A DNA stretch of 64,000 nucleotides from Bacteroidaceae bacterium (GCA_045534785.1 JAZSKJ010000032.1:18777-82776); one strand, 5' to 3'. Numbered from the stretch's first letter, positions 1 to 27,644 are shown. Notes: a model not told the origin generated them from the sequence alone. Made by a program: numbers and translations.

Positions 1-3000
1 CGGCAGCCGAAGTGATGTAAGTACGGAACGGAACGGTAGTAACCGTGCTGTTGGCTTCATCATTCTGGAACTTGTCGCCAGCCTGGCTGAGCAGGTAAGT
101 GGTTGCACCGGCCAGAGTCTTGGTCTGATAGGTAGGCATGTAGGTGTAACCGTCAGTTGCATTCCGGGCGGCTGCTGCATACTCATCATCAGTTACCAGA
201 ATGGTTGTACCTTCGTCTGCCGATGCGAATGTAATGTACTGCTTTCTCAGCTGTGCAGGTACGCCATTTGGCTCGGTAGCTGTATATGATACAGTCCATT
301 CTCCACTCAGGTCAAACTCATAGAAACGCTTGCCCGGGAATCCTATCAGATAAGGAGTACCTGCTGCATAGAGCGGATAATCGCTGTACTCGCGTGCAAT
401 TTTGTAGTAATTCTTCTGGTACTCGTCATCGTTCACATCGGGTCCGGCATTATCGGCCGATTCGCTGTTCCAATGGTAGTAATAATCCCAGAGGAATGTA
501 TTGTTGACAGTCTTGCCTCCATTGGTATCCTTTTCGGGAGCACTAAACATAGCCGTGGTTGTTGTAACCTCATTCTCTGTTGTTGTGCTCACACTGCTCA
601 GATTACGCAGCCAGTATTCATGTCCGGTCTTGCTGCCCTGGTAGAAGTGTGTTATCTCACCCTTCTGATGGGTAGTGACATACTTGGCAGTAAACGGCAG
701 GCTTACGGTCTCCCAGCCGGCATCCATGCTCTCAACGTATGTTGAAGGAACGCGCTGATACCAGATGTAGGAGTTGGTAGGTATCTTGTAGCTGATAGGA
801 GCGTTGAAGTCTTGCCTGTCAACCAGGAAGTGGTTGTTAACGCTCACATAACCATTGTCGGTCAGTCTTACCAGATGACCCTTGATATCATCAATAGCTC
901 TCTGCTCAACAGGTCTCACATTCTTATAACCGTCGTCAAACCCGAATATCAGATCTGCATCCTTATGATAGTAGTTGAGCAGTACGTTATTCTGATCCAT
1001 ATTGTCTGTAAAGTAAACCAGCATGTTCTGGGTCAGGCCATCAGTTATATAGCTGCTCAAGCCGTCAAAGTCAGTGATAGGTGTAAAGAACGCATTGTTA
1101 TTGGTACCCAGGCTCCACTCAGTATCATTGTTCTGGGTGAAGTCTATTGCTGTCATAGACTTGTGGATATCAATGTTGTCATAAGTATCCTTCAATGCTG
1201 CGTAACGGTTAAAGTAAACGCTGCTCTTTTCCTTGCTCTGATAGTAGGCCGGAGTCCTGAATACCCTGTTGTCCGATATACCGTTTGTCAACAGTCCGGA
1301 AGACTTTATAATAACTGCAGGATGTACGTCATGCTCACCGCCACCGTTTACTATATCATAGGTCAGGTTCTGACCGAAGTAGATGTAGTCATCAGGCCAG
1401 ATAGGCGAATAAGGCTCGGTACCCTTGTCACGTATATCGGGATCTTCAGGAATAGAACCCTTTGCATAGATGAAGTCAGGATTATAGTAACGCTGCTCAA
1501 CATAATTCTCAACATAATTGGTCGGATTATTGGGATAATATGCTGTAGTAGGTTCAGCGTTAGCTACATTAATGTCTGCTTTATTCCAAGCTGTGTATGG
1601 TGTCGTGTTGGCAGGAGCCTCAGTAGCATCCTTATACAGGTTGTCATAGTAGCGCTTGTTCAGGTAGAACAGGTTGAGGTTATATGCCACTTCACCGTCC
1701 ATGAACGCCTTAAGATCCTTCTTATGGGTGTCTCTGTTGGCAAGTGTAGCGCTATTGTAGTCATTGTAGTAATAACTGTTGATAACCTTAGCCTCATCGT
1801 TTTCTCCACTATAGCCAATGATAGGATAGGTGCTTGAACTTACCGTACCGTCAGTGAGAACCCAGCAGTTAACAGCCTTACCTGAGCCGACATCTGCTAT
1901 ACCGGGTCCGGTAAATGTACCGGTTACACCTAAGTTATAGACGCTGCCGCAAAGTGAGCCGAACAGTGAGTGGTCAAGTCCGCTTATGGTATGACCGTCA
2001 CCATGCAGAGTACCTTCAAAGCAATCGCTTGCATCACCTACAGGTGTCCATCCTGAGGTCAGATTGATATCACCGTCCAGTATAAAGTCAAGTCTCTGTC
2101 CGTTGGATAAATTGCTAACGCTTGAATTTGAAGCGGTGCTCTTGATCCGATTGAAGAACTCATTGAACTGAGCAAGCTCTGAAGCATCCTTGATGTAAAT
2201 CTTAGGATTGCGCTTTCCTTCCTTGACAGCCTCGTCCAGATACATGTAGTCATTAACGGTATGAGATTCCGGCTCATGTGTATCGGGATTAAGCGTAGTC
2301 TCAACATGAGTGCTGCTCATTACCTTATCCATGCGGTGGTAGTTGGCCACTTTGAACGGTACGGCGTTAGAGTAGGTCTTACCCAGATATGTCTTGGTGT
2401 AGTAAGCTACCAGATAGCCGTCCTGATACCAGTACATAGGAGTCTGGTTATTGGTATAAGGTATACCGTTCTTGTGCTGGTCAGCATCTTCCGGAGTGGT
2501 GAACATCTCCCATCCGCTACCCAGGACCTCGTATGCACCCGGAGTAATGCTAGGTATCTTAAGACCAACGGTGGTACTGGGCAGTACAATAGAGGGAGCC
2601 GACAACTCATCAATGAACGGAACGCCGCTCTTGAAGTTGATGTGTATGTTTACAATGTGCTGCTCTGAGATAGGCTCTATATGCTGTCCGCTCTCGTCAC
2701 TCTCCTCATAATCATACTGGTACATAACTGTTATGACCTTACCCTTTGAGAGGTTGAATATGTCAGACTCTCTTGTTACATAAAGGGTTGAAGTTCCTAT
2801 AGGTGCTGTACCCTGAACGCTGAAGTTTCCTTTCTGCAGGTTAGGCAAATCATTGTAGCCGTCGGCATTCAATATGAATCCTACCGGTACAGTTTGTCCG
2901 CTCGTCTTGGTAACTGAAATACTACTACCGGCTACCGAAGTAACGGCATGTCCCATACCATTCTCATTGACTTCATAACTGTCACGGCAGTAATAGTAAG

Positions 3001-6000
3001 TGTTATTCTGAACACCGGCTTGAGCGGCTGTGAATGTTACAACATCAATATTACTCTTCTGCTCTCCCAGACCATTATAAAATTCCTCTGTTATGGTCTT
3101 TCCTGCTATATAGAACGAACCTCCCTTGGAGAAGCCTTTCTTTATGATGTAGTAGGTGCCAGCCTGATCTACCTTAATTGGCGAGTAATGATACTGCTCA
3201 TTAGGAATAGTCTCATACTCTTCGCGTGTCAATACCCGGTTTGGTGAAATTGTCACGTTTTGATTAGCCTTATTGGTATATGTCAGATTTTCAGTTCCAT
3301 TATATGTGGCAGTGTAGTCAATGGATTGGGTCTGTGAATATAATATCTCCTGATTACCCTCCTTGCTGTCATACAGTGTGGTGTTACCCTTGGTGTAGTT
3401 GGGGTCAATCAGAACATCAAATGCATCATAGTTGAATTCAAAATGAGCACGGTCAGCCTCTGACATTGAACTCCAGGTCTCTATGCCGCGGTAGTTCTTA
3501 CCTGTCTCAAAGTAATCACCTCCATAATTTCCTGCGGTAGTGCAGTACCATGCTACGTCAAAGTAATCACCGTAATTAGCGTCGGGTACTGATACCAGTT
3601 CATTGTATCGTGAGTCGGTAATAAGCTCTCCGTAGTAGATGTACTCATCGTCTCCCAAATCAAGTGTACTGGTGCATAAGTATGCCTCAGCCACATTGCT
3701 GCTTATAGATGACCATTCGGTATCAGTGAACTGAGTCCTGTAGACTGCAGCTCCCGGATTGAGTTGCTTGTCGCCTTGAACAATCTTGGACGTTACTACA
3801 TAAGCTCTCTGCACAATGGCCTGATTATTATTGGGCTTATTGGTTATACTTTCATACGTATCATGTATTGCTCCGGGAATGATATCGCCTTCCTCGTATT
3901 GGCGCTGACCGTAAACGCCGCTTTGGCCTGTTTTAACGGTATAAGTGGGACCCTCATGGTAAAGTGCCTTTTGCTCTGCAGTGAGGTCATTATAATCTTT
4001 AAGATTTACTTTGCCTGTACCGTTCATCCGAGTGTGGTATTTGTCCCAAACTATCGGGTTGGCCATATCATAAGTAAGTATGAAACCTGTGTTATGACTC
4101 AGATTGTTTGACGGACGGAATATGTAGTCAAATGTTACATTAGTTTTGGCGTCAACGTTATATACGGTCTTGTTGGCAGATGCGGTCTTCAGAGCCTGAT
4201 ATTCTGAAGGCAGCATAGTATATCCCTTAGAATAGGGCGTGCCGTCTATTGTAGCATTGGCAATAGTAGTGTAAGTCTCCGGTACAAAAATGTTCTGTTC
4301 GGGTGCGCTTAGCAGATACCAATCCCAGTAGCTGATTGTATCGTTGAGCTTATATGTTACGTTGTTTACTGATACCGTCTTCTTTGATCCGTCACGCAGA
4401 TTCTCTGTCTGACCGCTATTGCTGTAGAATGCATATAGGTTAGGCTGAACATCCTTAAGCTGAATCTTACCGTGAGATTGTGCAGTGATGGTAAGAGGTA
4501 TGTTCACAGATTCGGCATAAGCGTTGGCCGATCCTGTGTATGCCGATATGTACTGGTCATATACATAGATGCTACCCTTTATGTACCAATAGTGTGCAGG
4601 CGAACCGCCATCAAGGTAACTGTTCATATCAGGATAGCAGTCATCCACAATCTGTTTCTGCGGATGTATGAAGTTACCCGATGTCTGGAGTTCAGAAGAA
4701 CTGGTAGGAGTTCCATACTCAAATGCCTTGTTGGTTACGGCTTTTTGGTGAGCTTGAGTGGAACCTACGGTCCTGGGCAGATTGTATTGTGACAGAATGG
4801 TTTGCTCGAGTCCTGTAGTGATCCTGCTGCCATGGATATTCTTGGCATATACATAACCGCCGCCCAAGCCGGTCATCACATTAATAAGGTCAAGTTCAAC
4901 CACACCGGTAATGGGTCCCCAGATCTTATTGTCTTTGGTACTCTCCTCTGTGGTCAGTTCCAGATATACACCCGATGCCAAAGCCACCTTGTTGGCACTT
5001 GCACCGTTGTTGCGTCTGCGCTTATCCTTATAATATTTTGTTTTCCAATTCTCGTAAGTCTGACCGTTAAATTCCGGCTTATAGGTTTCTTCATCCTGAT
5101 TGTCAAATTGGCGCGCGTCATTATAGTAATCAACATCACTCGTAAGAGCTCCCATGTGATTCACCACGCTGTAGATACCGAAATAGTTTCCGTGAACCTT
5201 GTCTTCCTTAGTATTATCGCCGGCTATTGATGCAACTTGGTTCAGCGATACCTCGCCTACACGGTTGATTGTGTAGTCTGTATAGTCAACTATTTCAGGT
5301 ACGCGGTCGCGTGCACCCTGAAGCACCATACGGCTTCCGAATATTCCGCAGAAATCAGCACGCTGGATTGTATTGAGCAATCGGCCCGCATAGATTGATA
5401 CGAAACCTTTCTTTACCCAATAGTGTTCGTTATGATATTGCTCTGCAGTGCCGGTAAACAGTTTGTCATAGTCTTCGGCCGTAAGTTCATCAATTTGTGC
5501 TTCATAAGGATTTCCATTCTTGTCCGTACAGTCCTGAACACACAAGTACTTGAGTTCATAATAGGCCTTCTCACGGTCAGTCATTTGTTCGTACTGCTCG
5601 ATATCAATCTTGTCGGGCTGGCTGAAATAGTCTGTACCGTAGTTTGTGATATTGAGCTCACGGTATCCGTCAACAAGAGTCAGGTTTCCGTCGCCGTAGA
5701 TACCGCCTATATGCTCGGTACCAATGGTTATAAGGTCGCGGTTATATACATCCCGCAAAACGGCAGTTGCGTTTCCAAGAACGGTATTGGTGTTGGCATA
5801 AACCACATCACTACCGGCAGATACGTTACCTCCTGCAAATATGGCGTTACGAATGATTATACCGTCAATGCTAACCTTAGCCCATTGTGCTTCATCATAA
5901 TTCTTATTTCTGAGCTTGTCCAGCTCATCTGTGGGAACATATTCCCCCTTTGCGTATGTAGTACCATCTATGGTGATACCGCCATCAGCTTTAACCAGGG

Positions 6001-9000
6001 CATAAGGCTCAACAATTACACGGCTATCGTCTGTGAGCTTGTTCTCATTTTTATCGCCGTCTACTTTGAAAGTAGTTCCGTTGTGCTCATAATAATAACC
6101 CTCAGTGCTGCTTTCCGAATTGAATCCGTTGCCTGTTGCAACTTCACCTTTTTTGCCGGAACCGGAGTATACAAAACCCAGGTCACCGCCACCGAATACG
6201 TTGCCGTATCCCTGCGCCACGTTGTCAGTAGTTCCTATCTCACCACCACGAATAAATACCTCGGTCTGGCCGAATACATAACCCTTGCAACCCCAGTCTG
6301 AACTGCTGATCTCTTCGTCTGACATGAACTTGCGGCCATCTCCTCCCCAACTGTCAATACCGCGGCCTCCGCCGAATACGTTACGCATTACGTGGCCTCC
6401 GTACATCTCAACATGAGTGTGACCGGCTTTGGATATATGGGCCGGGCCGTTTATAAATTGAGTACCTCCGGTGGCCGGCGTATTACTGACATTACCACGC
6501 CCTATGGGGCCTACCTCGCCGCCACCATACAGGTTGCCGCGTACAGTTCCGCCGTACATCTTGACAACGGTTTGGTCAACAAGGCTGTTTATTACATATC
6601 CTCCGCCAAACACATTGCCGCTCTTGTCCAGGTCATTTACATCTTGGTCATTCAGTTCCTCAACATAATCATTATCCTCATACCTGAAACCTACATGGCC
6701 GTTGTTGACAGTAACTTTTGCCACACCATATATGGTTCCACCTTCACCGCCGCCGTATGCGTTACGTGAAATGGCGGGATCACCACCGTATATGCCGTTT
6801 ACATTTAACTTGCCAATAATGACATTTGACTCACCGTCTATATCATTAGCGATACTTGATGTGGTTATATCGTGCTTGCCCACACTGCCACGCCAGCCGC
6901 CTCCATAGACATTACGTACAGAGCCGCTCTCTATATATGCATATGTCTTTGCTACAAAATTCTTTGTACCGTATTCGTCCATAACAGGACCGCTTGAACC
7001 GGCTGCATAAATATCTCTGCTTACTGTACCTCCAAACAGACCGATGAATGTTGTACCGCTAACTGTTGCGGTAGCACCAAGACCGGCTCCGTAACAATAG
7101 CGTGCTGCATATGCACCTTTCTTTATGTTTACGTTGGTGTTGGTCTTGATGACTTGCTCTTCATCATCTACAGTTATGGTATGTGGATGAACAAGTGCAT
7201 TGTCAAGACCGTTATCGGTATAGAAGTCTCCCAATGATTTATAAACCGTGGCTGTTGTGTTTTCACCGGCGTTCTCAGAAGCATCGGGTGTATAGGTGTT
7301 CCATGCGGCAACAGACTCTTTGTTGAGTACTCTTCCGGCATTACCGCCGCCATAAACTTCGCTTACACTTGCGCCATCTTCCAGGTTGATCTCGGTGTAT
7401 TGTGACCATGTTCCGGCGCCCTTGCCGGCTCCATAAATAGTTGCTGTATAATTACGGGGGTTACCATCTTCGGAATATACAGGAGACCAAATGTTTACTC
7501 GTGTATACAGAGTACGGCGTTTATTGTTGTTGCCGCCATATATGGCCTCATGGATGACTGCATTGCTGCTGTTGAAGTTTACGTTTGACTCATATACATC
7601 GCAAGGTGCACTGTTGCGGATTCCGTAAGAACCGCCGAACAACTCATCTGCAATCAAGGTGGAACCTGTGGGTACGTTTACTACGGTTCTACGTGTTATA
7701 CCCTCTTCATAGCTTCCTCCGTATACGGTAGATAATTCGCCGTGAACAAGGTCAATTACAGCAGATACGGACTCTACGGTAAAGTCCGGATTTTCTGTTA
7801 AATTGGGATTTACTCCCATACCAAGTCCGGAGAATGCACCGGCACCGAATATCTCTGTAGAGGTGAACTTCTTGGAACCGTCAGGTATGTTAACGTAAAC
7901 ATAACTGCGGTCCTGCATCATATCCTGCTTAACGTCGGCCTCTGTTGCGCCGGCATAACCCTGACCTGCACCGAATACCTTGGCTATGGTTGTGCTTGAT
8001 GTGCTATTGGGCATGAAGTTTACAAAGGCACTGGCAAGATAAGGATACGGATTGTTGTTGTGATAACTGTCGTCGGCTGCTAATTTGTGTAACTCATAGC
8101 TATCAGCCGAATAATTGTAGTTACCGCAAGAACCGCCGAAAATGTAGTTGCCTATTTTACCGGATATGTACTCGACATAAGCCGATGCCTGGGTTACATA
8201 AGTGTTCTCAGGATGTGATGAGTCGTAGTTGTAAACCTTGGTTATTTCACTGACTTTATTATAGAAATTGTTTGATCCCAGAATGCTGCCGCCAAAGTCA
8301 TTGCCGCCGAATACGTTGTTCTTTATCTCGGGCGATCCCGCTGTGCCGTCAGCTGCGGTACCTAAGAATGTCTGTGCATAGCCCGAAATGTTAGCGTTGC
8401 AGGCACCTCCGAATGAATCATATACCTTTCCTCCGGACAGATAAACAGATGTGTTGCCATTTACGGCTCCTTCAAATCCGCCGCCGTAAATTTTTCCAAT
8501 CTCACCACCTGTCATGTTGATGGTAGTGTTCTTTGTTACTCCACCTCTAAGACCGCCGCCGAATACCTTAAGGGCGCGTCCGGTACCAACTTCATCACTG
8601 GTTATATTGATGGTGGTATTGCCTATTACTGTTGCTTCAGGACCGAAACCGCCGCCAAATACGCTGAACGGGGTGTTGAACAGATTGACCTGATCGGCAA
8701 GATATGTATCCATGTCCGAGCTTATGGTCGAATTTGACGGAATGATATCCTGCTGTAGGTCTATTAATACATTACCGTTAATGATACCGCTGTTGAAACA
8801 GCCTCCGAATATGTTACCCTGATTACCCGAAGAGGCATTGTCAGGATTGGCAAATATAACACCGTTTACTGTCAGATGAATCTTCAGTTCATCAGCACGG
8901 GCAGGCGTAGCAGTAAAACCACCTTCATGGCGCGCATTAAGGTTTTCGGTAGCCTTAACGAATGCATCGTTACAACCGCCCACCAGTTTATGGGTGATAA

Positions 9001-18095: not shown

Positions 18096-18103
18096 CAAAA
18101 TTA
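18096..18103 (-). promoter_or_regulatory. Candidate Bacteroides-type -7 promoter box (TAATTTTG = TAnnTTTG) ahead of the 16966-18075 gene
   Basis: Plus-strand caaaatta at 18096-18103, about 20 nt upstream of the ATG at 18075. It sits in a 193-bp gap that also contains a hairpin. An 8-mer match alone is weak evidence. Confidence 0.3.
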
Positions 18104-18210
18104 AAAAATACACACACTCTCGCTCTCACTCTGCTGCCCCACTCATTGCAAACTGCATTTTTCCTTTTATAAATATCATTGGTAATATAGCGCTCACGCT
18201 CTCTTGGTGA

Positions 18211-18236
18211 CCATCGGGGCGATCAAACCCCGGTGG
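18211..18236 (-). terminator. Intergenic hairpin downstream of the 18269-19534 gene
   Basis: ccatcgggg / ccccggtgg form a 9-bp stem with an 8-nt loop. One position is T:G on the plus strand, which is an A:C mismatch in the minus-strand RNA. There is no clear U-tract. Confidence 0.35.
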
Positions 18237-18268
18237 CCTATTTAAAGAAAAGAGTTAGTCTGATGGGA

Positions 18269-19534
18269 TTACTGTACAACAACAGGTACATCATTCTTTG
18301 TAGCCCACTCATATACATCAGCATCAAAGTTGATTGCTGCAGGTGCAAGAGTGATTTTCAAAGTGTTCTGCCATCCTTCGCAGAAATCTACTGCTGTTGT
18401 GGCATCAGCATTGAAAACGTCGGCAAGGTTGTAGTAGTATTTATAGCTATCATGCTTAGTATAAACATTATTTTCAGTCTTGCCAATCTCATATTCAATT
18501 ACAATGTATGGTGCACTATCAGCTGTTGCATTGCTACCATTAAGGTAAAGATATGAATCAAGTCCAGTTACACTTTCATTTACCAGTACAGTCTTGCTGT
18601 AAGCAACGCTTTGTGGAATAGCCAGTCCCTCATATACATATTGATAATATGTATTCTCTGTGGTTTCAGTTGAGGTTATTAGCAAACCGGATGCATTCTC
18701 ATAACCAACGCCAGAGGTGAATGTGGCAGGTGTTGATGCTGCTGTCCAACGTGTAACTGTTCCACCTGAAAGGGTTGTGCCAGAAGCCCGTGACTCATCA
18801 AAAGAACCATTGCTTGTCATATTAAACACCTTAACAGATTTCAGATATACGGTATAGTCATCAAGTATAGTAGCTTTACGTACACCTATGTTAAGACGTG
18901 ATAGAATATGATTGAAACTGAGGTTTACGGGGGTATTAGTATAATTCTTATAATCCTCAATATCTGTTGAAATCATAAGATCCTCAGTTGTTAGTGCAGC
19001 TGTCAAAACCTTATTGGTAACAATAGCGGTTGCAGGAGTACCTGTTACGCTGTTATAACCTGTAATTGAGAAATCTGCAATTGAAACCTTCTTGGTAGAG
19101 GAGTTCCAGCTCCAATCATCTCTGCTGGGTGAAGCTGCGTAGAATTTGTAAACAGTTGCAGACTTATCCCAGAAACGAACAGGTGTGTAATACCAGCCTT
19201 CTGTGACAGCAGGGCTAGCAGTATTATCAGCATCCTTATGCTCAACCAACTGACCAGGATATGTATAGGTGTTGTTTGCACTTTCAACAGCTCCTAATAC
19301 AGGAGTTTCAGTACCGCTTACAACTTTATAACCCCATACTTTAAATGTATTGTTGTAAGTTTCAAGATTACCATTGATATTGGCAGATGAGTTCTCTGCA
19401 CGAGTCTGCTTATTGGTAATAGTGCTGAAACCTATTTCAATCTGCTCCTCATGGATGTCTGAGCGCATCTTGTCTTCTGAGCAACCTGTCAATACTAATA
19501 CGGTTGCAGCTATAAGCAATAATTTTTTATTCAT
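18269..19534 (-). CDS. Fimbrillin-like lipoprotein, FCEGWQNTL subfamily
   Basis: 421-aa ORF. Lipobox LVLTGCS, site TNKQTRAEN, motif FNHILSRLNIGVRK. C-terminal block YYYNLADVFNADATTAVDFCEGWQNTLKITLAPAAINFDADVYEW. Confidence 0.9.
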   Translation of the reverse strand: MNKKLLLIAATVLVLTGCSEDKMRSDIHEEQIEIGFSTITNKQTRAENSSANINGNLETYNNTFKVWGYKVVSGTETPVLGAVESANNTYTYPGQLVEHKDADNTASPAVTEGWYYTPVRFWDKSATVYKFYAASPSRDDWSWNSSTKKVSIADFSITGYNSVTGTPATAIVTNKVLTAALTTEDLMISTDIEDYKNYTNTPVNLSFNHILSRLNIGVRKATILDDYTVYLKSVKVFNMTSNGSFDESRASGTTLSGGTVTRWTAASTPATFTSGVGYENASGLLITSTETTENTYYQYVYEGLAIPQSVAYSKTVLVNESVTGLDSYLYLNGSNATADSAPYIVIEYEIGKTENNVYTKHDSYKYYYNLADVFNADATTAVDFCEGWQNTLKITLAPAAINFDADVYEWATKNDVPVVVQ

Positions 19535-19569
19535 GATTGTATTTCTTTATTATTTCGATAAGAAAAACA

Positions 19570-20679
19570 TTACTTTACTTCAACATTTTGATTACCGCCA
19601 TTTTCATCAAAATTGCAAATACTTACTACATCAAACTTGATCTCATTAGGTTTGATGTCTAATGTATAAGTTGTATAAGAATCTGTACCCCAAGTCTGAG
19701 TTGAAGGAACAATTGCAACCTGGTCTGTGAAGGTCTCTTCATAAGTATTTGGAGCTGCAACGCCGTCATTATATGTATATGTTACAGTGAATGTCAAACC
19801 AGCCTCGGTAACGTTTGCAGCGGGAGCTGTGTAAGCAATTTGCTGTGGAACCATAATATACCAGTCAGTAAGAGTGGTAGCTGTGGCAGATGCACCACAT
19901 GTGAGTTCAACGGATGTATTCCCAGTGCCAGTACCAACTAATGCGACGCTGCCGGCTGATGCAGTAGGAATATTCCACTCATCGTAAACTATACTACCAG
20001 GAGCTCCTGTATAAGTCATATTTTGAGTGAAATTACCAACTCCATTATTCCAACCTGTCATAGTAAGGCTATTTACTGTTACTGTACCAGAAGTGAGTGT
20101 GCTCTTAAGAGCAAACTGAACCTTAGCCATGATGTGATGGAAATCAATATCTACTGGTTCATTTGTAGAGCCGGTATGTGCACTTCCAAGTTCACCTTTT
20201 GCTCCGTCACGATCAATCAGATAGTCGTCAGATGCTGTACTTTTATTAGATTTTGCACCTGTGATTGTGATGCGACCAAAATTAGCAGCAGTCGGATCGC
20301 CTTGAATTGCATAAGTTGCACCATCTGTTGGGGCATTAGGAGCTACTGCATAGAAGTTATACGTTGCATTCTTGTCCCAGAAACGTAATCCGTCATATTT
20401 CCAGGCACTATTTGTGGCATCCCAATATACATTCTTACCAGCGAAAATGTCAGGATTTTCTTTTGTGTCAAAATCATCCAAAGATTTATAGCCATATACT
20501 ACGAATCCACCTTCTGTCTTCAAATTATCAATGCTTCCAATATGAGCACGTGTAATCTTATTAATGGACTGTCTGAATGAAATAGGCGCTTCTTGAGTGC
20601 TAATTTCATGAATGATGTCGTTTCCTCCACATGCAGTTAATAATGCAACTGCTGCGATCATCAAATAACTCTTTTTCAT
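19570..20679 (-). CDS. Fimbrillin-like (type V pilin family) lipoprotein
   Basis: 369-aa ORF. Lipobox ALLTACG, site INKITRAHI, motif FHHIMAKVQFALK, terminal strand IKFDVVSICNFDE. Confidence 0.85.
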   Translation of the reverse strand: MKKSYLMIAAVALLTACGGNDIIHEISTQEAPISFRQSINKITRAHIGSIDNLKTEGGFVVYGYKSLDDFDTKENPDIFAGKNVYWDATNSAWKYDGLRFWDKNATYNFYAVAPNAPTDGATYAIQGDPTAANFGRITITGAKSNKSTASDDYLIDRDGAKGELGSAHTGSTNEPVDIDFHHIMAKVQFALKSTLTSGTVTVNSLTMTGWNNGVGNFTQNMTYTGAPGSIVYDEWNIPTASAGSVALVGTGTGNTSVELTCGASATATTLTDWYIMVPQQIAYTAPAANVTEAGLTFTVTYTYNDGVAAPNTYEETFTDQVAIVPSTQTWGTDSYTTYTLDIKPNEIKFDVVSICNFDENGGNQNVEVK

Positions 20680-20726
20680 AATTCTCTTTTCTTTAAGTTT
20701 TTAGTTAATAATAAGTTTTCTAATTA

Positions 20727-20759
20727 GTGACCGGTAGGAGTATCACCTCCTGCCGGCCT
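20727..20759 (-). terminator. 33-nt hairpin element downstream of the 20776-22161 gene, identical to the copy at 22210-22242
   Basis: Sequence gtgaccggtaggagtatcacctcctgccggcct. The stem ccggtaggag / ctcctgccgg is 10 bp with a 6-nt loop. One T:G on the plus strand becomes A:C in minus-strand RNA. No U-tract. Confidence 0.4.
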
Positions 20760-20775
20760 GTATTATGAAATAATA

Positions 20776-22161
20776 TTATTGTATTGTGAATTCTCCATCA
20801 GTATTTTCATCTCCTGTTGGATACTTCTCATCCCATTGGTAAACAACAGGATTAAATTTGATGGCGGAGGGAGCAAGTGTTATATTAAGAGTGTTCTGCC
20901 AACCTTCACAGAAATCAACATCATTATCTTTATTAGCTCCATCTCCGTTGAATACGTCTGCAAGATTGAAATAATAAACGTAGCCGTCAATCTTAGAATA
21001 GTTATTATTTTCGGTAACACCAATTTCATAATCTATTACAATATAAGGATCGCTCCAAGTATCATTGCCTGAGCTTACAGCATTGTAACCATCAATCCTT
21101 AGATAAGAAGACAAACCAGCAACATCCTCATTGGGCATTACAGTCTTAGCATATCCAACTGTTTGAGGCATTATGAGCCCCTCATATACATATTGATATT
21201 TTCCATCTGATACCTTCTGGGTAATTTCTTGCGCAGTTGTAGGCTCAAACTTCATGTTGCCTGGAGTGAATTTATCAGTGTTGCCTGTGGCTTTGGTCCA
21301 ACGCGCCTGAGTCCCAGCCTTTAATTGGGCATCAGTCAGAGTTGTGGCTTCATCAAAAGAACCAAGACTCTTCATGTTGTAAATCTTAATAGATTTGAGG
21401 TTGACAGTATAATCTGCTAAGTCATTACTCTTGCGAATGCCGATATTGAGGCGTGACAAAATATGATTGAATACTAACTGAACTCCATTATTATTGGGAG
21501 CAGTGGAATAAGTATAATCCTTGTAATCTAATATGTCAGACGCAATCATCAAATCTTCTGTATCCTCAGTTGCCATTATCTTGGCCGCATCAATTGTGGT
21601 ATTTGTAGGATCAGAGGCCATGTTAGTGCCACTAACACGGAAATCGGCGAGTGAGATTGTCTTGGGAGATGTATTATCTGTGATAGCCCAAACTTTTGTC
21701 TCTCTGCTCATTGTTTCGCCTTCATACTTTGCACTCTGGGGATTGAACGGAGCAGCTGCATAGAAATCATAATGTGTGGCTGTCTTGTCCCAGAATCTAA
21801 CAGGACTGTAGGCCCAGTGACCTATTAAAGAGGCCTCAGTTGATTGGTATTCAACTTTTTCACCAGGATATAGAAATCCATCAGTCGCATTTCCTGTGAA
21901 ACCAAAAACAGGAGTTCTTGCAAAAGTGCTTTCTCCGTTTTTGATATATTTATTACCCCAAAGTCTGAAAGTCTTGTTATAAGACTGTAGCTCATTTTTT
22001 TCCGTTGCATTTGAGTTGTCAGCACGAGTTTGCTTGCTTGTAAAAGTTGTGAAACTAATAGCGCTATTGTCCTGCTGTTTTATTTCCTTGAAGGTTTCAT
22101 TACCAGCGCAACCATTTAACACCAATGCTGCAGCAGTGATTATTATCAAACTCTTTTTCAT
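20776..22161 (-). CDS. Fimbrillin-like lipoprotein, FCEGWQNTL subfamily
   Basis: 461-aa ORF. Lipobox LVLNGCA, site TSKQTRADN, motif FNHILSRLNIGIRK. C-terminal block YYFNLADVFNGDGANKDNDVDFCEGWQNTLNITLAPSAIKFNPVVYQW. Confidence 0.9.
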   Translation of the reverse strand: MKKSLIIITAAALVLNGCAGNETFKEIKQQDNSAISFTTFTSKQTRADNSNATEKNELQSYNKTFRLWGNKYIKNGESTFARTPVFGFTGNATDGFLYPGEKVEYQSTEASLIGHWAYSPVRFWDKTATHYDFYAAAPFNPQSAKYEGETMSRETKVWAITDNTSPKTISLADFRVSGTNMASDPTNTTIDAAKIMATEDTEDLMIASDILDYKDYTYSTAPNNNGVQLVFNHILSRLNIGIRKSNDLADYTVNLKSIKIYNMKSLGSFDEATTLTDAQLKAGTQARWTKATGNTDKFTPGNMKFEPTTAQEITQKVSDGKYQYVYEGLIMPQTVGYAKTVMPNEDVAGLSSYLRIDGYNAVSSGNDTWSDPYIVIDYEIGVTENNNYSKIDGYVYYFNLADVFNGDGANKDNDVDFCEGWQNTLNITLAPSAIKFNPVVYQWDEKYPTGDENTDGEFTIQ

Positions 22162-22209: not shown

Positions 22210-22242
22210 GTGACCGGTAGGAGTATCACCTCCTGCCGGCCT
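22210..22242 (-). terminator. 33-nt hairpin element downstream of the 22253-23563 gene, identical to the copy at 20727-20759
   Basis: Same 33-nt string as at 20727-20759. On the coding strand it is followed by an A8 tract (T8 at 22197-22204 on the plus strand) and then the shared leader ttaaagaaaagagaattATG. Confidence 0.4.
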
Positions 22243-22252: not shown

Positions 22253-23563
22253 TCAATCAAATATTGTTACATCTTCATTTTTCTTGTCCTTCCACTCATA
22301 TACCTGAGCATCGAAGACGATTACGTCGGCATCAATCTTGATGTTGAGGGTGTTCTGCCAACCTTCGCAGAAGTTGAGAGTGCTACCCTCGGCTATGCCA
22401 AATGCATTTGCAAGATTGTAGTAAGCTGTATAAGGCTCGCTGCCGATAGTGTAACTAATCTTAAGATAGGGATGAGATACAGCACCACCTTGTTCCTTGA
22501 TGTCATAAATGGTCTTGCCATGTGCAGCTGCGGTATTGTCATTTGCGGCGGCATCAATTTCAGCCTGAGTGAAATATGTATCAGGAAGAGTTGCCTTAGC
22601 TCTGTCAATAACCTCGCTGGTTATGGCCTGCGGGATGATGAGGTACTGGGCAATGTACAGCGGAGTGGTAGCATCAAGTTCCTTGTCGCTGATGTCAGCT
22701 CCAGGAAGGTTGTATGTGCCATCAGTAGAAGTTGTAGGCCAACGTTTGATTGTTCCCTCTTCTAGTACATCAGTTCCAAGATCTGCACCCTCGTTGAATG
22801 TTCCCTTGTTCTTAAGATTAACACCAATAATCTCAAATGAAGTAACCTTTACAACTACATTATTGTTGTCATCACCATCATTGTTTAATTTGTCAATTGC
22901 TCCATCAGCTTTAAGTGCAACAGTAACATTCAGACGAGAGAGGATATGATTGAAAATCTCATTTACCTTATCGGGCTGGTTCTTGTTGTACTTGGGTCTT
23001 GGAACAAGGTTGTCCTCAGCAATCATCAAATCAACATCGTTAACTTCCTTGAAAGACTTAACCTCTGTGGTGACGGTAGGAGTGCCTTTTGAGAGGTTGT
23101 TGTCTATTCCACCGGCCAGTGTAAAGTCTGCGTAGCTTAATTTGCCCTGATCGCCGGTACCAGTAAGAGTCCAAGCTGCATTTGAGGGAGATGCTGCATA
23201 GAAATAATACTTGTCTGCAGATTTATCCCAGAATTTCTCAGGAGTTACATCCCACTTGAAATAAGTCTGGGTCTCTGTTGCATTGTCGTTATATGTCACA
23301 ACACCCTTGTCATAAACCGGAGTGGTAACCCAAGCGCCGTTGTAGAACTTCCAGGCCCAAACGTCAAATGAAGAATTGTGGTTTTCAAGCAACCACAATT
23401 GAGTTGCATTCATATTATTGTCGGCACCTTTTGTCTGGATTCCGGCATAAGTGTCAAAAGCAATAGCGTTCTCGTTATACTGCTTTACGTCGTTCTTGAG
23501 CTCTTTGTCATCGCACGATGCGAATATTGCAACTGCTGCGAGTAAATATAAAGCCTTTTTCAT
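22253..23563 (-). CDS. Fimbrillin-like lipoprotein, FCEGWQNTL subfamily
   Basis: 436-aa ORF. Lipobox AIFASCD. Candidate maturation site uses Lys (AGIQTKGAD). Motif FNHILSRLNVTVALK. C-terminal block YYNLANAFGIAEGSTLNFCEGWQNTLNIKIDADVIVFDAQVYEW. Confidence 0.9.
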   Translation of the reverse strand: MKKALYLLAAVAIFASCDDKELKNDVKQYNENAIAFDTYAGIQTKGADNNMNATQLWLLENHNSSFDVWAWKFYNGAWVTTPVYDKGVVTYNDNATETQTYFKWDVTPEKFWDKSADKYYFYAASPSNAAWTLTGTGDQGKLSYADFTLAGGIDNNLSKGTPTVTTEVKSFKEVNDVDLMIAEDNLVPRPKYNKNQPDKVNEIFNHILSRLNVTVALKADGAIDKLNNDGDDNNNVVVKVTSFEIIGVNLKNKGTFNEGADLGTDVLEEGTIKRWPTTSTDGTYNLPGADISDKELDATTPLYIAQYLIIPQAITSEVIDRAKATLPDTYFTQAEIDAAANDNTAAAHGKTIYDIKEQGGAVSHPYLKISYTIGSEPYTAYYNLANAFGIAEGSTLNFCEGWQNTLNIKIDADVIVFDAQVYEWKDKKNEDVTIFD

Positions 23564-23581
23564 ATTCTCTGCTGTTTTTTA

Positions 23582-24889
23582 TTAGTTAACAGATACATTT
23601 GCTTCAGTCTCAGTTGTCCACTCAATAACTTCAGCATCAAAGTGAATGGGGTCGGGACCTATTGTTAATGTCAGATTGTACTGGCTGCCCTGCTTGAACT
23701 CGAAGTCTTTACCAGGAACTGCTTCTGTTTTAACATCACCAACATTTTTTGTTCCTGCAATCACTTCTGCATCCTCTGCGGTGTAAAGAACTTCTTCAAC
23801 AGGAGCAGTTGTGGGGTCAAATACATATGCTAAATCATAGTATGCATTGTAAACCTCGGTGCCAATCTGATATTGAATGTACAGATAAAGGTCTGTCAAA
23901 TCTACGGCTGTGGGCTGAGCACCTGCAGCCTTACAATTTGTGGTCTGCGGGAATATCAGTGTCTCAATCCAATACTTCTTATCATAGTTGGTCTCAGCAT
24001 TTGCAAGAGCATACGGGGTATTGATATCAATGTCATAAGTGCCCTGAGTGCTCCAGCCGTTGGTTGCCATATCGGTGTTATAGACAAAGTTTCCTTCTTT
24101 TTCAAGACCTGAAATCTTAAGCTCGTTCACTTTCAGAATCTGCTGGCCCATGTAATTATCTGACTTCTGGATTTTTACATTCAGTTTGGTCAGGATGTGG
24201 TGGAATACCAGCTGTACATCTGATGTAGTGACTGTGCCACGAGGAGTTACAACCTTCTTATCGGCAATCATGTAGTCCTTCTTGAAACCGCTGTAGGTCA
24301 GTTCACCTTTTGGTGCTGCAGTTTCTGAAATGGGATCTACTGTAAAGTCTGTACGAGCCAGGTTGTACTCAGTTTCAATGTCATACTTAGCTGCGCTTGT
24401 TGCAATTGAAATGTTGTTTGCGTTAGCTGCAACAGTATAAACCGGATTGCTCTCGTAAGGTGCAATGGCAAAGAACTGATAGCTTGAAGCCATCTTATCC
24501 CAGTAGCGTACGCTCTCATAGTACCATCCGGGGAAAGGATCGGCAAATGACCATTCCTGTGAGGGCTTCTCGCCGTCAGCGTCATAAACCACATCACCCT
24601 TTGCGTCTGAGGTGAAATACTCGTTAGGAGTATTTTCAAACACAGACTGCTCTTCTGTACCGCTGCCATCTAACTTGGCAACAGTCTTCCATCCATATAC
24701 ACCGAATACGGTGTAGAAATCATTGAGCGCTGTTGAGTTGGTGCCTCTTGTTACCTTGTCAGCATATGCTGAGAATGAGAGGGCCTGCTCAGTCTGCTGC
24801 TCGTTAGCGGCACCTTTTAAGGTCTCGCTATCGGAGCAGGCTGTAAACAGGGCAGCAGCGGCTGCAATTATAAATAAACTTCTTTTCAT
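23582..24889 (-). CDS. Fimbrillin-like (type V pilin family) lipoprotein
   Basis: 435-aa ORF. Lipobox ALFTACS, site ADKVTRGTN, motif FHHILTKLNVKIQK, terminal strand IHFDAEVIEWTTE. Confidence 0.85.
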   Translation of the reverse strand: MKRSLFIIAAAAALFTACSDSETLKGAANEQQTEQALSFSAYADKVTRGTNSTALNDFYTVFGVYGWKTVAKLDGSGTEEQSVFENTPNEYFTSDAKGDVVYDADGEKPSQEWSFADPFPGWYYESVRYWDKMASSYQFFAIAPYESNPVYTVAANANNISIATSAAKYDIETEYNLARTDFTVDPISETAAPKGELTYSGFKKDYMIADKKVVTPRGTVTTSDVQLVFHHILTKLNVKIQKSDNYMGQQILKVNELKISGLEKEGNFVYNTDMATNGWSTQGTYDIDINTPYALANAETNYDKKYWIETLIFPQTTNCKAAGAQPTAVDLTDLYLYIQYQIGTEVYNAYYDLAYVFDPTTAPVEEVLYTAEDAEVIAGTKNVGDVKTEAVPGKDFEFKQGSQYNLTLTIGPDPIHFDAEVIEWTTETEANVSVN

Positions 24890-24939: not shown

Positions 24940-26094
24940 TTACAGCTCGGGAATAATGTCTCTCTCAACGGGATCAATGTCGTTCCAGAGGTCTGTGGTA
25001 GCATCGAAGGTGATTACGTTAGGTCTAACGGTCATCTTAAGGGTGTAGTTGTTCTTCTCCTTGAAGTTTTCGAATACCTTGTTGCCTTCTGCATCCTTGA
25101 AGTTCAGCACGTAGTTGTAGTCCTCCTCGTGGGGATTGCCGTCGGTGCCGGATACGATGGTGTAGTTGATAACGAGCTTCTCAACGTTCTCCTCAATTGC
25201 CTGAGGCATTACAAGTGACTCAATGAAGTAAAGAGGCTTGATAACATCCTTACCTTCTTCTACCTCGCTGTTGGGCAGCTCAACGCCGTTGGCATTTGCC
25301 CATGAAAGCTGGTATGCAGCATTAACCTTGCTTGATGTCCAACCGCTCACGTCACCTGTTGTAGCCTCAGTGTAAACACCGTTATCATCAAGACCTGTAA
25401 CCTTAACGTCGCGGATGACCACCTTTACATTATTATATATGGGGTCCTTGCCTATTGATATGTTCAGCTTGGCCAGAACGTGCTTGAAGTTGAGAACTAC
25501 ATCCTCAAGTTTAGCGGCACCGTCACGCTGCTCTATCTTGGCAGCAGTCATAATGTCTGTATCATTGCCGTCAACGCCGTTAAAGCCAACTCTGATCTCA
25601 GCGGCGGTAGGAGTTGTCTGGAGGTTCTGACCAGTCAGAGTGTAACCTGCAGCATCTGCGGTAACATATGTACCTGCGTTGTCGCCTACATTCTCAGGCT
25701 TGTTGAAACGGATGATGTTTGAGTTGGGAGCTACAGCAACAAATGCATAGGTGGCCTGCTTGTCCCAGTAACGATAGGGGCTGTAAGTCCAGTGGTTAGG
25801 AGCCAGATTCTCGCTGTCAAATGATACAAGGTCAGCGGCATCATCACCGTCAAACACTTTCTGAATTAAAGTCTCGTCGTTCTTGGACTGCTTGGTTGAC
25901 CAAACAGCAAATGTCTGGTGGTAGTACTCAAGGTCAACTTCAGATGCGTTAGCTCTGGTGGCCTTATCTGAGAATGTGTTGAAGCCAATCACAGTAGGAG
26001 CAGCCTCGTTGTCAATCTCGCGGTTAATTGTCTCGGTTTGATAGCAGGATACCATCATTGTGGCAGCTGCTGCAAGAATAAGAATCTTCTTCAT
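24940..26094 (-). CDS. Fimbrillin-like (type V pilin family) lipoprotein, first pilin-like gene of the array
   Basis: 384-aa ORF. Lipobox TMMVSCY, site SDKATRANA, motif FKHVLAKLNISIGK, terminal strand VITFDATTDLWNDID. Confidence 0.85.
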   Translation of the reverse strand: MKKILILAAAATMMVSCYQTETINREIDNEAAPTVIGFNTFSDKATRANASEVDLEYYHQTFAVWSTKQSKNDETLIQKVFDGDDAADLVSFDSENLAPNHWTYSPYRYWDKQATYAFVAVAPNSNIIRFNKPENVGDNAGTYVTADAAGYTLTGQNLQTTPTAAEIRVGFNGVDGNDTDIMTAAKIEQRDGAAKLEDVVLNFKHVLAKLNISIGKDPIYNNVKVVIRDVKVTGLDDNGVYTEATTGDVSGWTSSKVNAAYQLSWANANGVELPNSEVEEGKDVIKPLYFIESLVMPQAIEENVEKLVINYTIVSGTDGNPHEEDYNYVLNFKDAEGNKVFENFKEKNNYTLKMTVRPNVITFDATTDLWNDIDPVERDIIPEL

Positions 26095-26145: not shown

Positions 26146-26349
26146 TCAATTAATGAAACGCAATGTGGTCTCATTGTACTGATTGTACCTTCCGGTAATG
26201 ACCTGTTCACTGTTGTGGCTGGCTTGTCCGTTAGTTTCTTCTTTGGGACGTGAGGTCCTGAACAGTGTAATCAGGGCTGCCATAACCACGCAGCTTGCTG
26301 CTGCCAGAAGCATGTAGTTCCAATTGCCTTTCTTTAATTTTGTAAACAT
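26146..26349 (-). CDS. Small single-pass membrane protein (hypothetical)
   Basis: 67-aa ORF filling the gap between two same-strand genes. It has one hydrophobic helix (NYMLLAAASCVVMAALITLF) after a basic N-terminus. I recognise no family. It could be spurious. Confidence 0.4.
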   Translation of the reverse strand: MFTKLKKGNWNYMLLAAASCVVMAALITLFRTSRPKEETNGQASHNSEQVITGRYNQYNETTLRFIN

Positions 26350-26405: not shown

Positions 26406-27644
26406 TCAAATCGTTACCTCAGCGTTAACTTCGTTGGCCCAATCCTCAACACTTGCGTTGAAACCGCCGCCTGTTGACTGCTGACGCTTATCAAGAACTT
26501 CCTGAGGAACCTCGTTGGCATCAAAGTAGATGGTGATAACGCCGCCGGTGGGCTTGTTGTGCATCTGCTCGGTGATATCGCGGGTAATTTTCCAGGTGTA
26601 ACCATTGCGGAGTGTGAAACCTATGCCGATGAAGTTGTTGTCAAATACGGGAGCCTTGGTGCCGGCCTTGGTGGTCTCAATTGGAACGATTCCGGGAAGA
26701 CCCCAAGTCAGTACGCGGGTTGCAATGATATCGGCGTTGTCAACTGTTGAACCGTCGGCCATGCGTACGTTGTCGTGGTTCTGCATGGGCTTTACGTCAT
26801 CGGTTGAGATTGAAATTGTGTTGCTGAATGTTCTGCGGGTGAAGAGGTCAACGCCCTGTGCAAGACCGGTTGTGGTGATACCCTTGGCGCCTACAACTAC
26901 GTTACCCTTATCGTCGCGTACATTGTTTGTAATGATGATCTGGAACAGATATATAAATGAGTAGGGGCGGAGGGCTGCATTCACTCTGTAGATGTAGGTG
27001 ATGTTGCCAAATGCATCGTACTCTTTCTCATAATCTGAAGGATCCTCGCTGATGGTCAGGTTCTCTGCAAGTGAACCGAACAGCTCATCGGGCTGGTTGT
27101 AGTTGGTGTAATCCTGGATTGAATCGGGCATCTCGCTTGTCTCAACCTCTGCACGGGTGCTGATCCATGATGACTGTGTGCTCACACGGGTTGAAGCGGT
27201 ATAGCTCTCATAGTCATCGCTCTGGTAGAATGATGTGTACTCAGTACCGAAGTTGTAGAACAACATGTCATATACAGAACCTGCGGTCAGTGATACGCGG
27301 CCACCGTTTGAATCAAAGATCTTGAAGAATGAGCTGTAACGCTTGCCGGTGTAACGGTCAATGTTATATATGGTACCCTTGATGAGCTCAGGCTTGGTGT
27401 AACCGATGGTGCCGAAGTCTGCGGCTGACTCATACCAGGTGTACTGCCACTCAGTCTCCCAATCTATTCCCCACAGGAGGTCCAGACGTACATCATACAT
27501 CTCTACTGATATCTGGGTTGTGTCAACTCTCAGGAACAAGTCCTTGCGCTCGCAAGAAGTATTGAACAGGATAACCATTGCAAATACCAGAATAAACTGT
27601 ATCTTTGCCATCACCTTGTTGTTTGAATTTGTTCTGTTTGACAT
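26406..27644 (-). CDS. Lipoprotein, first gene of the fimbrial block; possibly DUF5119-like pilus-locus accessory protein
   Basis: 412-aa ORF. Signal peptide plus Cys (ILFNTSCERKDLF). An alternative ATG lies at 27611. The C-terminus reads STGGGFNASVEDWANEV. The DUF5119 assignment comes only from my memory of fimbrillin-adjacent Bacteroides lipoproteins. Confidence 0.65.
   Translation of the reverse strand: MSNRTNSNNKVMAKIQFILVFAMVILFNTSCERKDLFLRVDTTQISVEMYDVRLDLLWGIDWETEWQYTWYESAADFGTIGYTKPELIKGTIYNIDRYTGKRYSSFFKIFDSNGGRVSLTAGSVYDMLFYNFGTEYTSFYQSDDYESYTASTRVSTQSSWISTRAEVETSEMPDSIQDYTNYNQPDELFGSLAENLTISEDPSDYEKEYDAFGNITYIYRVNAALRPYSFIYLFQIIITNNVRDDKGNVVVGAKGITTTGLAQGVDLFTRRTFSNTISISTDDVKPMQNHDNVRMADGSTVDNADIIATRVLTWGLPGIVPIETTKAGTKAPVFDNNFIGIGFTLRNGYTWKITRDITEQMHNKPTGGVITIYFDANEVPQEVLDKRQQSTGGGFNASVEDWANEVNAEVTI

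Follow-up and report, generated by a model that had tools for sequence, protein, structure and literature searches.

Type V pili have been studied in detail for only a few model operons. In the current model, pilins are displayed as surface lipoproteins, an Arg/Lys-specific cut is made after the anchor strand, and each incoming subunit inserts its C-terminal donor strand into the groove of the subunit before it; the anchor, the stalk and the adaptor Mfa3 have donor strands, which the tip proteins Mfa4 and Mfa5 lack (PMC13655056). Mfa5 is a tip component that depends on the T9SS (type IX secretion system), bears a T9SS C-terminal domain (CTD) and is not expected to be incorporated through strand exchange (PMC7835359); how this protein, the one known T9SS-dependent component, joins the fiber is unsolved. 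In Bacteroides, the pilins are surface lipoproteins matured by a surface clostripain, and the tip pilins described so far bear a ligand-binding domain in cis at the C-terminus (PMC12632263). Here we analyzed a stretch of 64,000 nucleotides (nt) from a Bacteroidaceae bacterium (GCA_045534785.1, JAZSKJ010000032.1:18777-82776), the whole of which is referred to as the window. Its minus strand carries a locus in which an accessory lipoprotein gene (g1) and eleven pilin-like lipoprotein genes (g2 to g12) precede a giant gene, the 3' end of which falls beyond position 1.

This locus is probably an expanded Mfa-like type V pilus system with an adaptor-plus-giant cassette, and in its carrier, an uncultured gut or rumen Bacteroidales, it probably serves to build a fiber that displays the giant as an adhesin. 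The original prediction, which described an outsized type V pilus-like locus, finds support in homology and gene linkage, and each computational check that it named had a favorable outcome. The analysis adds the near-constant pairing of g12 with the giant, a signature in the g12 tail, the modular and mosaic make-up of the array, and structured intergenic elements.

Linkage of g12 and the giant gene

The two genes at the locus's distal end are the following.

11200-12357, minus strand: g12, predicted pilin-fold lipoprotein of a separate family (AlphaFold2 (AF2) model and Foldseek, motifs)
1-11182, minus strand: giant open reading frame (ORF), 3,727 codons in the window, with about 100 codons missing at the 3' end (translation)

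The association of these two genes was assessed in both directions. Starting from g12, the giant follows in 15 of 15 loci (L001-L015). A scan of species-representative genomes for the g12 family gave ten additional loci; these are rumen or gut metagenome-assembled genomes labelled Bacteroidaceae, Bacteroidales or Prevotella, and the giant follows g12 in all ten. For the converse test, metagenomes were scanned with the giant N-terminus alone, which yielded 80 loci, 74 of them with at least 1.3 kb of upstream sequence. A g12-family ORF lies within 300 nt upstream of the giant in 70 of these 74 loci and at 422 nt in one more, the gap between the two genes being usually below 70 nt.

Pilin-superfamily ORFs were present in all 29 metagenome loci with at least 9 kb of upstream sequence: 16 of the 29 have at least three (maximum eight), and 13 have only one or two that are detectable with the profiles used. 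The co-occurrence of pilin genes and the giant in other genomes, which the original prediction had named as a point to examine, holds for every related locus examined that has enough upstream sequence. In two distant loci with few pilins by these profiles, Pfam finds P_gingi_FimA, Mfa2, Mfa_like_1, DUF5119, DUF3575 and a C11 peptidase upstream. A Peptidase_C11 gene (clostripain family; L012, 1211-2347) heads a distant locus with g12 and the giant, beside DUF3575 and DUF5119 genes, and is a candidate for a pilin-maturing protease. Within type V pilus loci of varying make-up, g12 and the giant form a near-constant unit.

A predicted pilin fold and a family-specific tail in g12

Where eleven tandem paralogues had been claimed, ten (g2-g11) belong to one family, and g12 represents a separate, specialized one. 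The g12 protein has a Cys at position 29 and the tripeptide TRA at 62-64, and is devoid of the IxFDAxVxxW strand. BLASTP gave no link between g12 and g2-g11, and searches for a Pfam, NCBIfam or PDB sequence match to g12 returned none. A single-sequence hhalign comparison of g12 with the pilin profile was set aside, as it produced a motif-level match only; the fold and iterated profiles were required. A word-indexed search of 5.8 billion proteins found only 14 homologues of g12, and the AF2 model built from them reached a predicted local distance difference test score (pLDDT) of 76, with a tail of low confidence. The best 20 Foldseek matches of this model in the PDB are all Bacteroidales type V pilins, with a probability of 1.0 (4QB7, 3T2L, 3SY6, 4RDB, 4H40, 4K4K, FimA 6JZJ and Mfa2 5NFI; template modelling (TM) scores of 0.25-0.52). 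TM-scores as modest as these are to be expected where the hinge angle between two domains varies. Iterated profile searches begun from g12 or from the array family converge, with 197 of 204 matches in common. The model and the profiles together indicate eleven pilin-fold lipoproteins, ten of one family and one (g12) of another. For the fold itself, with its two transthyretin-like beta-sandwich domains, which the original prediction expected of all eleven, the evidence differs: g12 is assigned through AF2 and Foldseek, and g2-g11 through a profile match to solved pilins rather than through models of their own.

The C-terminal tail of g12 is PSYLYQLSDDDLD, encoded at the 3' end of the gene (11200-11260). 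Its motif, P(T/S)YLYxLS(D/E)xDLDNPT, is carried, some 21 residues before the C-terminus, by 85 of 85 distinct g12-family proteins (loci L001-L097) and by only one of 150 array-type pilins. None of the 85 has the IxFDAxVxxW strand; tail and strand are mutually exclusive, and the tail comes after the same conserved Pro as the C-terminal strand of g2-g11. The tail is also the most conserved segment of the g12 family, and it was this segment that the locus-finding scan chose as its search pattern. A pilin-type Arg/Lys site is retained at the expected position in 66 of the 85 members. We infer that the tail is a partner-specific docking or donor element, for which the giant, as its constant neighbor, is the obvious candidate partner, and we propose g12 as an adaptor.

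The giant protein

Translation from position 11182 bore out the predicted giant gene (>3,700 amino acids (aa)), giving 3,727 stop-free codons up to the window edge. The protein starts with a Sec-type signal peptide (..PLFA/DV). Residues 1-1750 contain 17-20% Gly and VYGGGN-type repeats, with 27 (V/I)(Y/F)GGG repeat cores at irregular spacings of 25-190 aa between residues ~40 and 1700, and residues ~1700-3727 lack repeats and have a high content of Tyr and Thr. A BLAST comparison of the giant with itself returned no internal repeats. The Gly-rich region is, by its sequence, compatible with a beta-solenoid; the 'beta-helix' of the original prediction has the VYGGGN repeats as its sole basis. 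No Pfam family matched the giant at E≤0.01, nor did any quarter of it match one at E≤10; NCBIfam likewise gave no family, and the PDB gave no match to either the single sequence or a 17-sequence profile. The N-terminal 1,200 residues match 675 cluster representatives (50% identity) at E≤0.001, and a cut-off of E≤1e-30 leaves 208 of them; among the best 150 cluster representatives, 83 are longer than 3,000 aa.

The last 1,000 aa were used as a query against the database of 5.8 billion proteins. All homologues of this segment extend ~95-110 aa beyond the window end, and the closest full-length relative (P0259; 3,780 aa, 63.8% identical) is 101 aa longer at the C-terminus. Orthologues of the giant are 3,734-3,791 aa long, and the complete giant should be about 3,830 aa. 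The window copy ends at VPFRTY, a motif (VPFRxY) that precedes the T9SS CTD in the homologues. TIGR04183 (T9SS type A) ranks first among families in 27 of 30 C-terminal fragments of giant relatives (best E 8.5e-8), one of which scores 29.6 bits against a cut-off of 23, and also in the five closest full-length relatives (E 1.8e-4 to 1.3e-2). Pfam supports a T9SS CTD in the homologues more weakly, and NCBI names one homologue as T9SS-sorted. The T9SS CTD that had been suspected at the C-terminus is present in relatives, the window copy ending about 100 aa before it.

In one metagenome scaffold (L001, 3451-23182) the giant is split by a frameshift into parts of 2,201 and 1,696 aa that overlap at 10001-10056; immediately behind it comes another gene of the giant family (at least 2,683 aa), without a second g12. 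Many homologues of 1,000-1,700 aa in the database are likewise N-terminally truncated fragments.

The array of pilin-like genes

The ORF listing of the window confirmed the thirteen consecutive minus-strand genes predicted between 27644 and 11200, namely twelve large genes and one ORF of 67 aa. Apart from g12, these genes and the elements between them are listed below; GC3 is the G+C content at third codon positions.

26406-27644, minus strand: g1, DUF5119 lipoprotein with Cys31 (Pfam, motif scan)
26146-26349, minus strand: small conserved ORF of 67 aa with one hydrophobic helix (same position in L016 and L017)
24940-26094, minus strand: g2, pilin-like lipoprotein (BLASTP paralogue, motifs)
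23582-24889, minus strand: g3, Mfa_like_1 pilin-like lipoprotein (Pfam, BLASTP, motifs)
22253-23563, minus strand: g4, pilin-like lipoprotein, ~30% identity to g5 and g7 (BLASTP, motifs)
22214-22239, minus strand: stem-loop after g4 (intergenic)
20776-22161, minus strand: g5, Mfa_like_1 pilin-like lipoprotein, GC3 0.34, 47% identical to g7 (Pfam, BLASTP, motifs)
20731-20756, minus strand: stem-loop after g5, identical to the copy after g4 (intergenic)
19570-20679, minus strand: g6, pilin-like lipoprotein, GC3 0.28 (BLASTP, motifs)
18269-19534, minus strand: g7, Mfa_like_1 pilin-like lipoprotein, GC3 0.31, followed by a stem-loop (Pfam, BLASTP, motifs)
18141-18266, minus strand: conserved non-coding block at the junction between modules (alignments of three and eight loci)
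16966-18075, minus strand: g8, Mfa_like_1 pilin-like lipoprotein, opening the conserved downstream module (Pfam, BLASTP, motifs)
15145-16932, minus strand: g9, Mfa_like_1 pilin-like lipoprotein with an acidic insert of ~240 aa (Pfam 8.5e-31, BLASTP, motifs)
13577-15118, minus strand: g10, pilin-like lipoprotein with an acidic insert of ~150 aa (BLASTP, motifs)
12396-13553, minus strand: g11, Mfa_like_1 pilin-like lipoprotein with the deviant C-terminal strand IELESVQVKNW (Pfam, BLASTP, motifs)

The intergenic gaps in the array are mostly 17-50 nt. Wider gaps separate g1 from g2 (311 nt, holding the small ORF) and g7 from g8 (193 nt), and lie on either side of g5 (91 and 96 nt).

A motif scan of g2-g12 found a lipoprotein signal, i.e., a hydrophobic signal peptide ending in Cys at position 17-29, and a T(R/K)(A/G) site 21-33 residues past this Cys in all eleven proteins. 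These parts of the architecture that the original prediction assigned to eleven genes hold throughout, whereas the central motif, F/M-x-H-(I/V/L)-(L/M)-(S/A/T)-(K/R/N)-(L/V), is exact in ten (g2-g11) and has only a near-match, MNHLYSKV, in g12. The C-terminal strand P-x-x-I-x-F-D-A-x-V-x-x-W, claimed for nine genes in the form of its IxFDAxVxxW core, is common to the ten genes g2-g11, being degenerate in g6 and g11, and has no counterpart in g12.

All-against-all BLASTP interlinks g2-g11 at E-values of 1e-4 to 1e-124. The predicted similarity to Pfam Mfa_like_1 (PF13149) was found above the gathering score in six genes (g3, g5, g7, g8, g9 and g11), and the other four (g2, g4, g6 and g10) are BLASTP paralogues of these six. 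A profile of g2-g11 can be aligned from one end to the other with BVU_2522, a solved type V pilin (4QB7; E 4.4e-20) called BvuFim1C in bioRxiv 2024.11.15.621889, and also matches the PDB entries 3UFI, 4K4K and 3T2L. Judged by their sequences, g2-g11 carry the hallmarks of polymerizing type V pilins: a predicted lipidated Cys, an Arg/Lys site and a C-terminal strand. This set agrees with the protease-mediated strand-exchange model (PMC13655056) and with clostripain cleavage (PMC12632263). No gene for a pilin-maturing protease was found in the window.

Two members of the array contain acidic inserts full of DxDGDG and DIDGDGK motifs (g9, 15238-15960; g10, 13679-14137), which sit between the pilin body and the C-terminal strand and keep their size in related loci. 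The inserts match no Pfam family and resemble calcium-binding loops in pattern only.

Modular and mosaic organization of the locus

Two related genomes show the same layout, with a divergent AraC-type regulator, a DUF5119 gene, an ORF of 62-68 aa, variable pilins and a long conserved spacer, downstream of which come pilins of ~370, ~600, ~510 and ~385 aa, then g12, and then an intact giant of 3,791 or 3,779 aa. The variable pilins upstream of the spacer number seven and four in these genomes, compared to six in the window. The order and sizes of g8-g12 are kept across genomes whose giants are only ~45% identical. Identity to the nearest genome (genome A) varies strongly along the locus: it is 90% for g1, 97% for g2 and 83% for both g3 and g4; 52% for g5, 28% for g6 (best match, no orthologue) and 47% for g7; and 87% for g8, 84% for g9, 81% for g10, 59% for g11, 57% for g12 and ~64% for the giant. 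The GC3 of g5-g7 is 0.28-0.34, compared to 0.44-0.60 elsewhere in the locus. Because of this low GC3, and since g5-g7 have no close orthologues in the nearest genome although the flanking genes are 81-97% identical there, this segment (18269-22161) looks like a replaced cassette within the variable half of the array. The distal end (g11, g12 and the giant) is fast-diverging, which fits exposed, selected surfaces.

Structured intergenic elements

The original prediction pointed to a hairpin and a promoter-like box at 18.1-18.2 kb as signs that the last six genes form their own transcription unit. Both are present in the window, but the box is not conserved in relatives. The hairpin lies at 18211-18236 (free energy -19.2 kcal/mol, z-score -4.0). 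GC-rich stem-loops of the form AGGCC-GGCAGGAGG-TGATA-CTCCTACCGG-TCAC stand directly after particular pilin genes, with copies after g4, g5 and g7 in the window and further ones in at least ten other loci (L002, L004, L006-L008, L010, L011, L016, L019-L021, L024, L026-L028, L043 and L097). Across 22 distinct variants 91.7% of cells pair, compensatory changes occur in 5 of the 12 pairs, and the covariation score was reached by none of 500 shuffles. Read in the sense orientation, the stem-loop has A-rich sequence and no T-run after it, and for this reason it is more likely an attenuator or mRNA-stabilizing element that sets subunit ratios than a classical terminator.

The spacer between g7 and g8 contains a block of ~110-125 nt that is conserved across eight genomes (giants ~45% identical) much better than the flanking proteins. 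Around the stem-loop this block has an imperfect inverted repeat (CTCTTTTCTTTAAATA / TATTTATAAAAGG), and the consensus fold includes a second small hairpin, AGCGTGAGCGCT. Rfam gave no match in the window or in this 18.2-kb spacer. The promoter-like box TAATTTTG (18096-18103) agrees with the -7 consensus of Bacteroides and precedes the g8 start by 21 nt; in alignments of three and eight loci it is absent from the relatives. The -7 motif TAnnTTTG occurs in the window at chance frequency (37 found, compared to 34 expected), and on the gene strand in intergenic DNA it is found only upstream of g1 and g8. A scan for sigma-70 promoters was set aside as not meaningful for Bacteroidota. The genes from g8 to the giant constitute a module conserved in evolution, with a conserved non-coding element ahead of it.

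Head of the locus and flanking genes

The accessory lipoprotein g1 matches DUF5119 (PF17145) above the gathering score (34.7 bits with a cut-off of 27, E 2e-8), and the listed g1 homologues, 71-92% identical, all carry PF17145. The motif scan found no T(R/K)(A/G) site in g1. In comparison with genome A, only g2 is more conserved than g1 among the proteins of the locus. Its C-terminus, GGGFNASVEDW, is invariant in the family and resembles the pilin strand motif; within it, FNASVEDW is the best match in the window to the profile of pilin C-terminal strands outside the members themselves, with 4.7 bits only. We hypothesize that g1 may be an anchor or assembly component. The small ORF that follows has counterparts of 55-64% identity in L016 and L017, and the 67-aa product matched no family.

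Upstream of g1, in the opposite orientation, lies the following gene.

27891-29153, plus strand: AraC/HTH_18 regulator, divergent, with a multi-helix hydrophobic N-terminal part (Pfam, synteny)

This gene, a candidate for regulating the locus, has syntenic counterparts in related genomes. A 17-nt inverted repeat with 82% complementarity brackets the g1 start (27591-27607 / 27676-27692, arms 68 nt apart). A Bacteroides -7-type box, TATCTTTG, is present in both arms, on opposite strands; the two boxes could be face-to-face promoters for g1 and the AraC-type gene, or could be due to chance. An invertible promoter was considered and set aside, as the only inverted repeat near the g1 start is short and no recombinase is encoded among the scanned ORFs. 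A diversity-generating retroelement was also set aside, with no reverse transcriptase among the scanned ORFs.

Further along the plus strand, an ORF of 1,304 aa (36981-40895) encodes a protein with a signal peptide and W/Y/D-rich repeats that matches no Pfam family. Its C-terminus (..APGIYLITVGSKTTKIVVR) looks like a T9SS type A CTD and ranks second among the window's matches to the giant-family CTD profile, albeit weakly (E 0.047), which suggests that the organism has other T9SS cargo. A gene of 1,302 aa occupies the equivalent position in L016. The remaining flanks (29302-36270 and 40932-63392) contain a V-type ATPase operon, syntenic in relatives, and then a polysaccharide utilization locus with SusC/SusD, GH127, GH97, DUF6055, an arabinofuranosidase and a hybrid regulator with a Y_Y_Y domain, of a kind typical of plant-glycan-degrading Bacteroidales.

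Proposed assembly and alternative explanations

In the pilus that we propose, the pilins would arrive at the surface as lipoproteins, their anchor strands would be stripped by a surface protease with Arg/Lys specificity (clostripain- or gingipain-like, encoded outside the window), and the subunits would be joined by strand exchange into a heteromeric fiber. The giant would be exported separately via the T9SS, and g12 would couple it to the distal end of the fiber, paralleling the adaptor/tip proteins Mfa3/Mfa4 and the T9SS-dependent Mfa5. The genes conserved in order and size, g8-g11, would then supply a distal adaptor segment, two subunits of which have long acidic spacers, whereas g2-g7, variable in number and content, would supply the stalk or alternative stalk variants, with g1 (DUF5119) as a candidate anchor or assembly factor. 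Such a fiber would likely serve to attach its carrier, within the herbivore gut, to particles, to host surfaces or to other cells; the sequence indicates no ligand.

Several observations weigh against this proposal. Both the formation of a fiber and the display of the giant on it are read from genes, and the CTD of the window giant is predicted from its orthologues, the last ~100 codons being outside the window. Pfam finds no vWA domain in the giant, and pilin profiles find nothing in it. Of the families to which the original prediction looked for similarity, Mfa_like_1 and DUF5119 match the window, but the stalk family P_gingi_FimA does not, nor does PF08842 (the Mfa2/FimB anchor). The ten array subunits all look able to donate and accept strands, unlike the subunits of the model operons with their one stalk. 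The candidate anchor, g1, showed no pilin link in phmmer and profile searches against the PDB or in an hhalign comparison with the pilin profile; its AF2 model is poor (pLDDT 42, from a shallow alignment with an effective sequence number of 1.5), and the one strong Foldseek match of this model, 5CAG (a Bacteroides 'putative adhesin'), followed by Mfa4, is a hint at most. Finally, T9SS type A cargo is normally anchored to the surface by a glycolipid after removal of the CTD (PMC11969387), so a pilus is not needed for the giant to be displayed.

The last point leads to an alternative that we consider unlikely, in which the giant would be a T9SS adhesin that a PorU-type sortase anchors to the outer membrane through a glycolipid, g12 would be its private partner for folding, retention or positioning, and the pilin array would build a separate fiber or none, the genes being located together for the co-regulation of adhesive structures. 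Such anchoring is what the type A CTD of the homologues predicts (PMC11969387), and it would agree with the lack of a pilin-like domain in the giant, with a g12-giant pair far more constant than the array (one or two detectable pilins in the 13 of 29 loci noted above), and with the second giant of L001, which has no second g12. However, g12 keeps the pilin fold in its model, and the Arg/Lys site kept by most of its family (66/85) points to strand-exchange chemistry; the other upstream genes in distant loci are again of type V (FimA-type, Mfa2-type, DUF5119 and Mfa_like_1), and Mfa5 demonstrates that a protein with a CTD can end up in a pilus (PMC7835359).

It is more doubtful still that the Mfa_like_1 paralogues are non-polymerizing surface lipoproteins ('cell adhesion proteins'), occurring as monomers or short oligomers and displayed individually for binding or as decoys and exchanged by recombination. 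The C-terminal strand and the Arg/Lys site, present in all ten, are hard to explain without strand exchange, and the order and sizes of g8-g12, kept while the giants have diverged to ~45% identity, suggest a defined assembly. Yet the best structural match of the array, 4QB7 (BvuFim1C), is of the accessory type and not a stalk pilin, no FimA/Mfa1 stalk or Mfa2 anchor family matched in the window, and g5-g7, with their foreign-looking GC3 and no orthologues in the closest genome, would fit antigenic diversification; fimbria-like appendages have also been historically hard to show for such Bacteroides loci (PMC12632263).

For the expanded type V pilus with its adaptor and giant, a more specific form can be put forward tentatively, and we regard it as possible rather than probable. 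The g12 and giant families might constitute a portable 'tip cassette' that links two export routes, the T9SS-exported giant being captured through strand complementation by the g12 tail, and g12 plugging into fibers of differing pilin families (Mfa_like_1 arrays here, FimA/Mfa2-type pilins in Prevotella-like loci). The fiber encoded in the window might then be an ordered heteropolymer whose subunits follow one another as their genes do and which includes two acidic spacer subunits resembling calcium-binding proteins. If true, this would represent a new type V architecture and a general rule for mounting very large T9SS cargo.

A literature search found no description of this locus type, of the function of DUF5119, or of 5CAG. 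Dozens of rumen and gut Bacteroidales genomes provide a natural comparative series, in which a T9SS protein of ~3,800 aa is tied to one pilin-fold gene alongside variable stalk-type paralogues, and the g12 tail motif is a concrete proposal for the hand-over from the T9SS to the pilus. The giants, with their 675 cluster representatives at 50% identity and no Pfam domain, are a large unannotated family. Attachment to host surfaces or plant particles plays a central part in the rumen, where the giants could be major uncharacterized adhesins.

Comparison with known systems

The giant resembles SprB and RemA of Flavobacterium johnsoniae in being a very large, repeat-rich surface protein exported by Sec and, as predicted here, by the T9SS. 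A weak match links the giant family's CTD profile to the CTD of RemA (8GL6_D, E 0.11); outside the CTD there is no sequence similarity to SprB or RemA. SprB has a type B CTD and PorP/SprF-type partners and functions in gliding motility; the constant partner of the giant, in contrast, is a pilin-fold lipoprotein inside a pilus locus. The tip fibrillae of chaperone-usher pili (PapK-E-F-G) offer a comparison by analogy only, in that paralogous donor/acceptor subunits could assemble in a fixed order ending in an adhesin. The fold and the machinery are unrelated, with no chaperone or usher, and ordered assembly is hypothetical for the locus in the window.

With the type V loci of Bacteroides and Phocaeicola (4QB7 BVU_2522, 3UFI, 4K4K and 3T2L) the array shares the Pfam family and the fold of g2-g11. 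It differs from them in having its presumed binding module on a separate protein, the giant T9SS cargo. A T9SS is absent from many gut Bacteroides.

The P. gingivalis mfa1-5 operon differs from this locus in several respects. Eleven pilin-fold genes are predicted here, compared to four in mfa1-5, and none is recognizable as a member of the Mfa1/FimA or Mfa2 families. A DUF5119 lipoprotein and a small membrane ORF head the locus, two subunits have long acidic inserts, and the putative adaptor, g12, has an invariant tail motif of its own. Unlike Mfa5, which is marked by a vWA domain and by Ig-like domains with an isopeptide bond, the giant has neither a vWA nor any other Pfam domain, is roughly three times longer, and shows no similarity to Mfa5 beyond the CTD. 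The likenesses to mfa1-5 nevertheless extend through the whole layout: lipoprotein pilins encoded on one strand, with Arg/Lys maturation sites and C-terminal donor strands, both putative here; a distinct pilin-fold protein (g12), comparable to Mfa3/Mfa4, just before the last gene; and a last, largest gene that encodes a non-pilin with a T9SS CTD, here seen in the orthologues. By these sequence comparisons, the giant appears to be an analogue of Mfa5, not a homologue.

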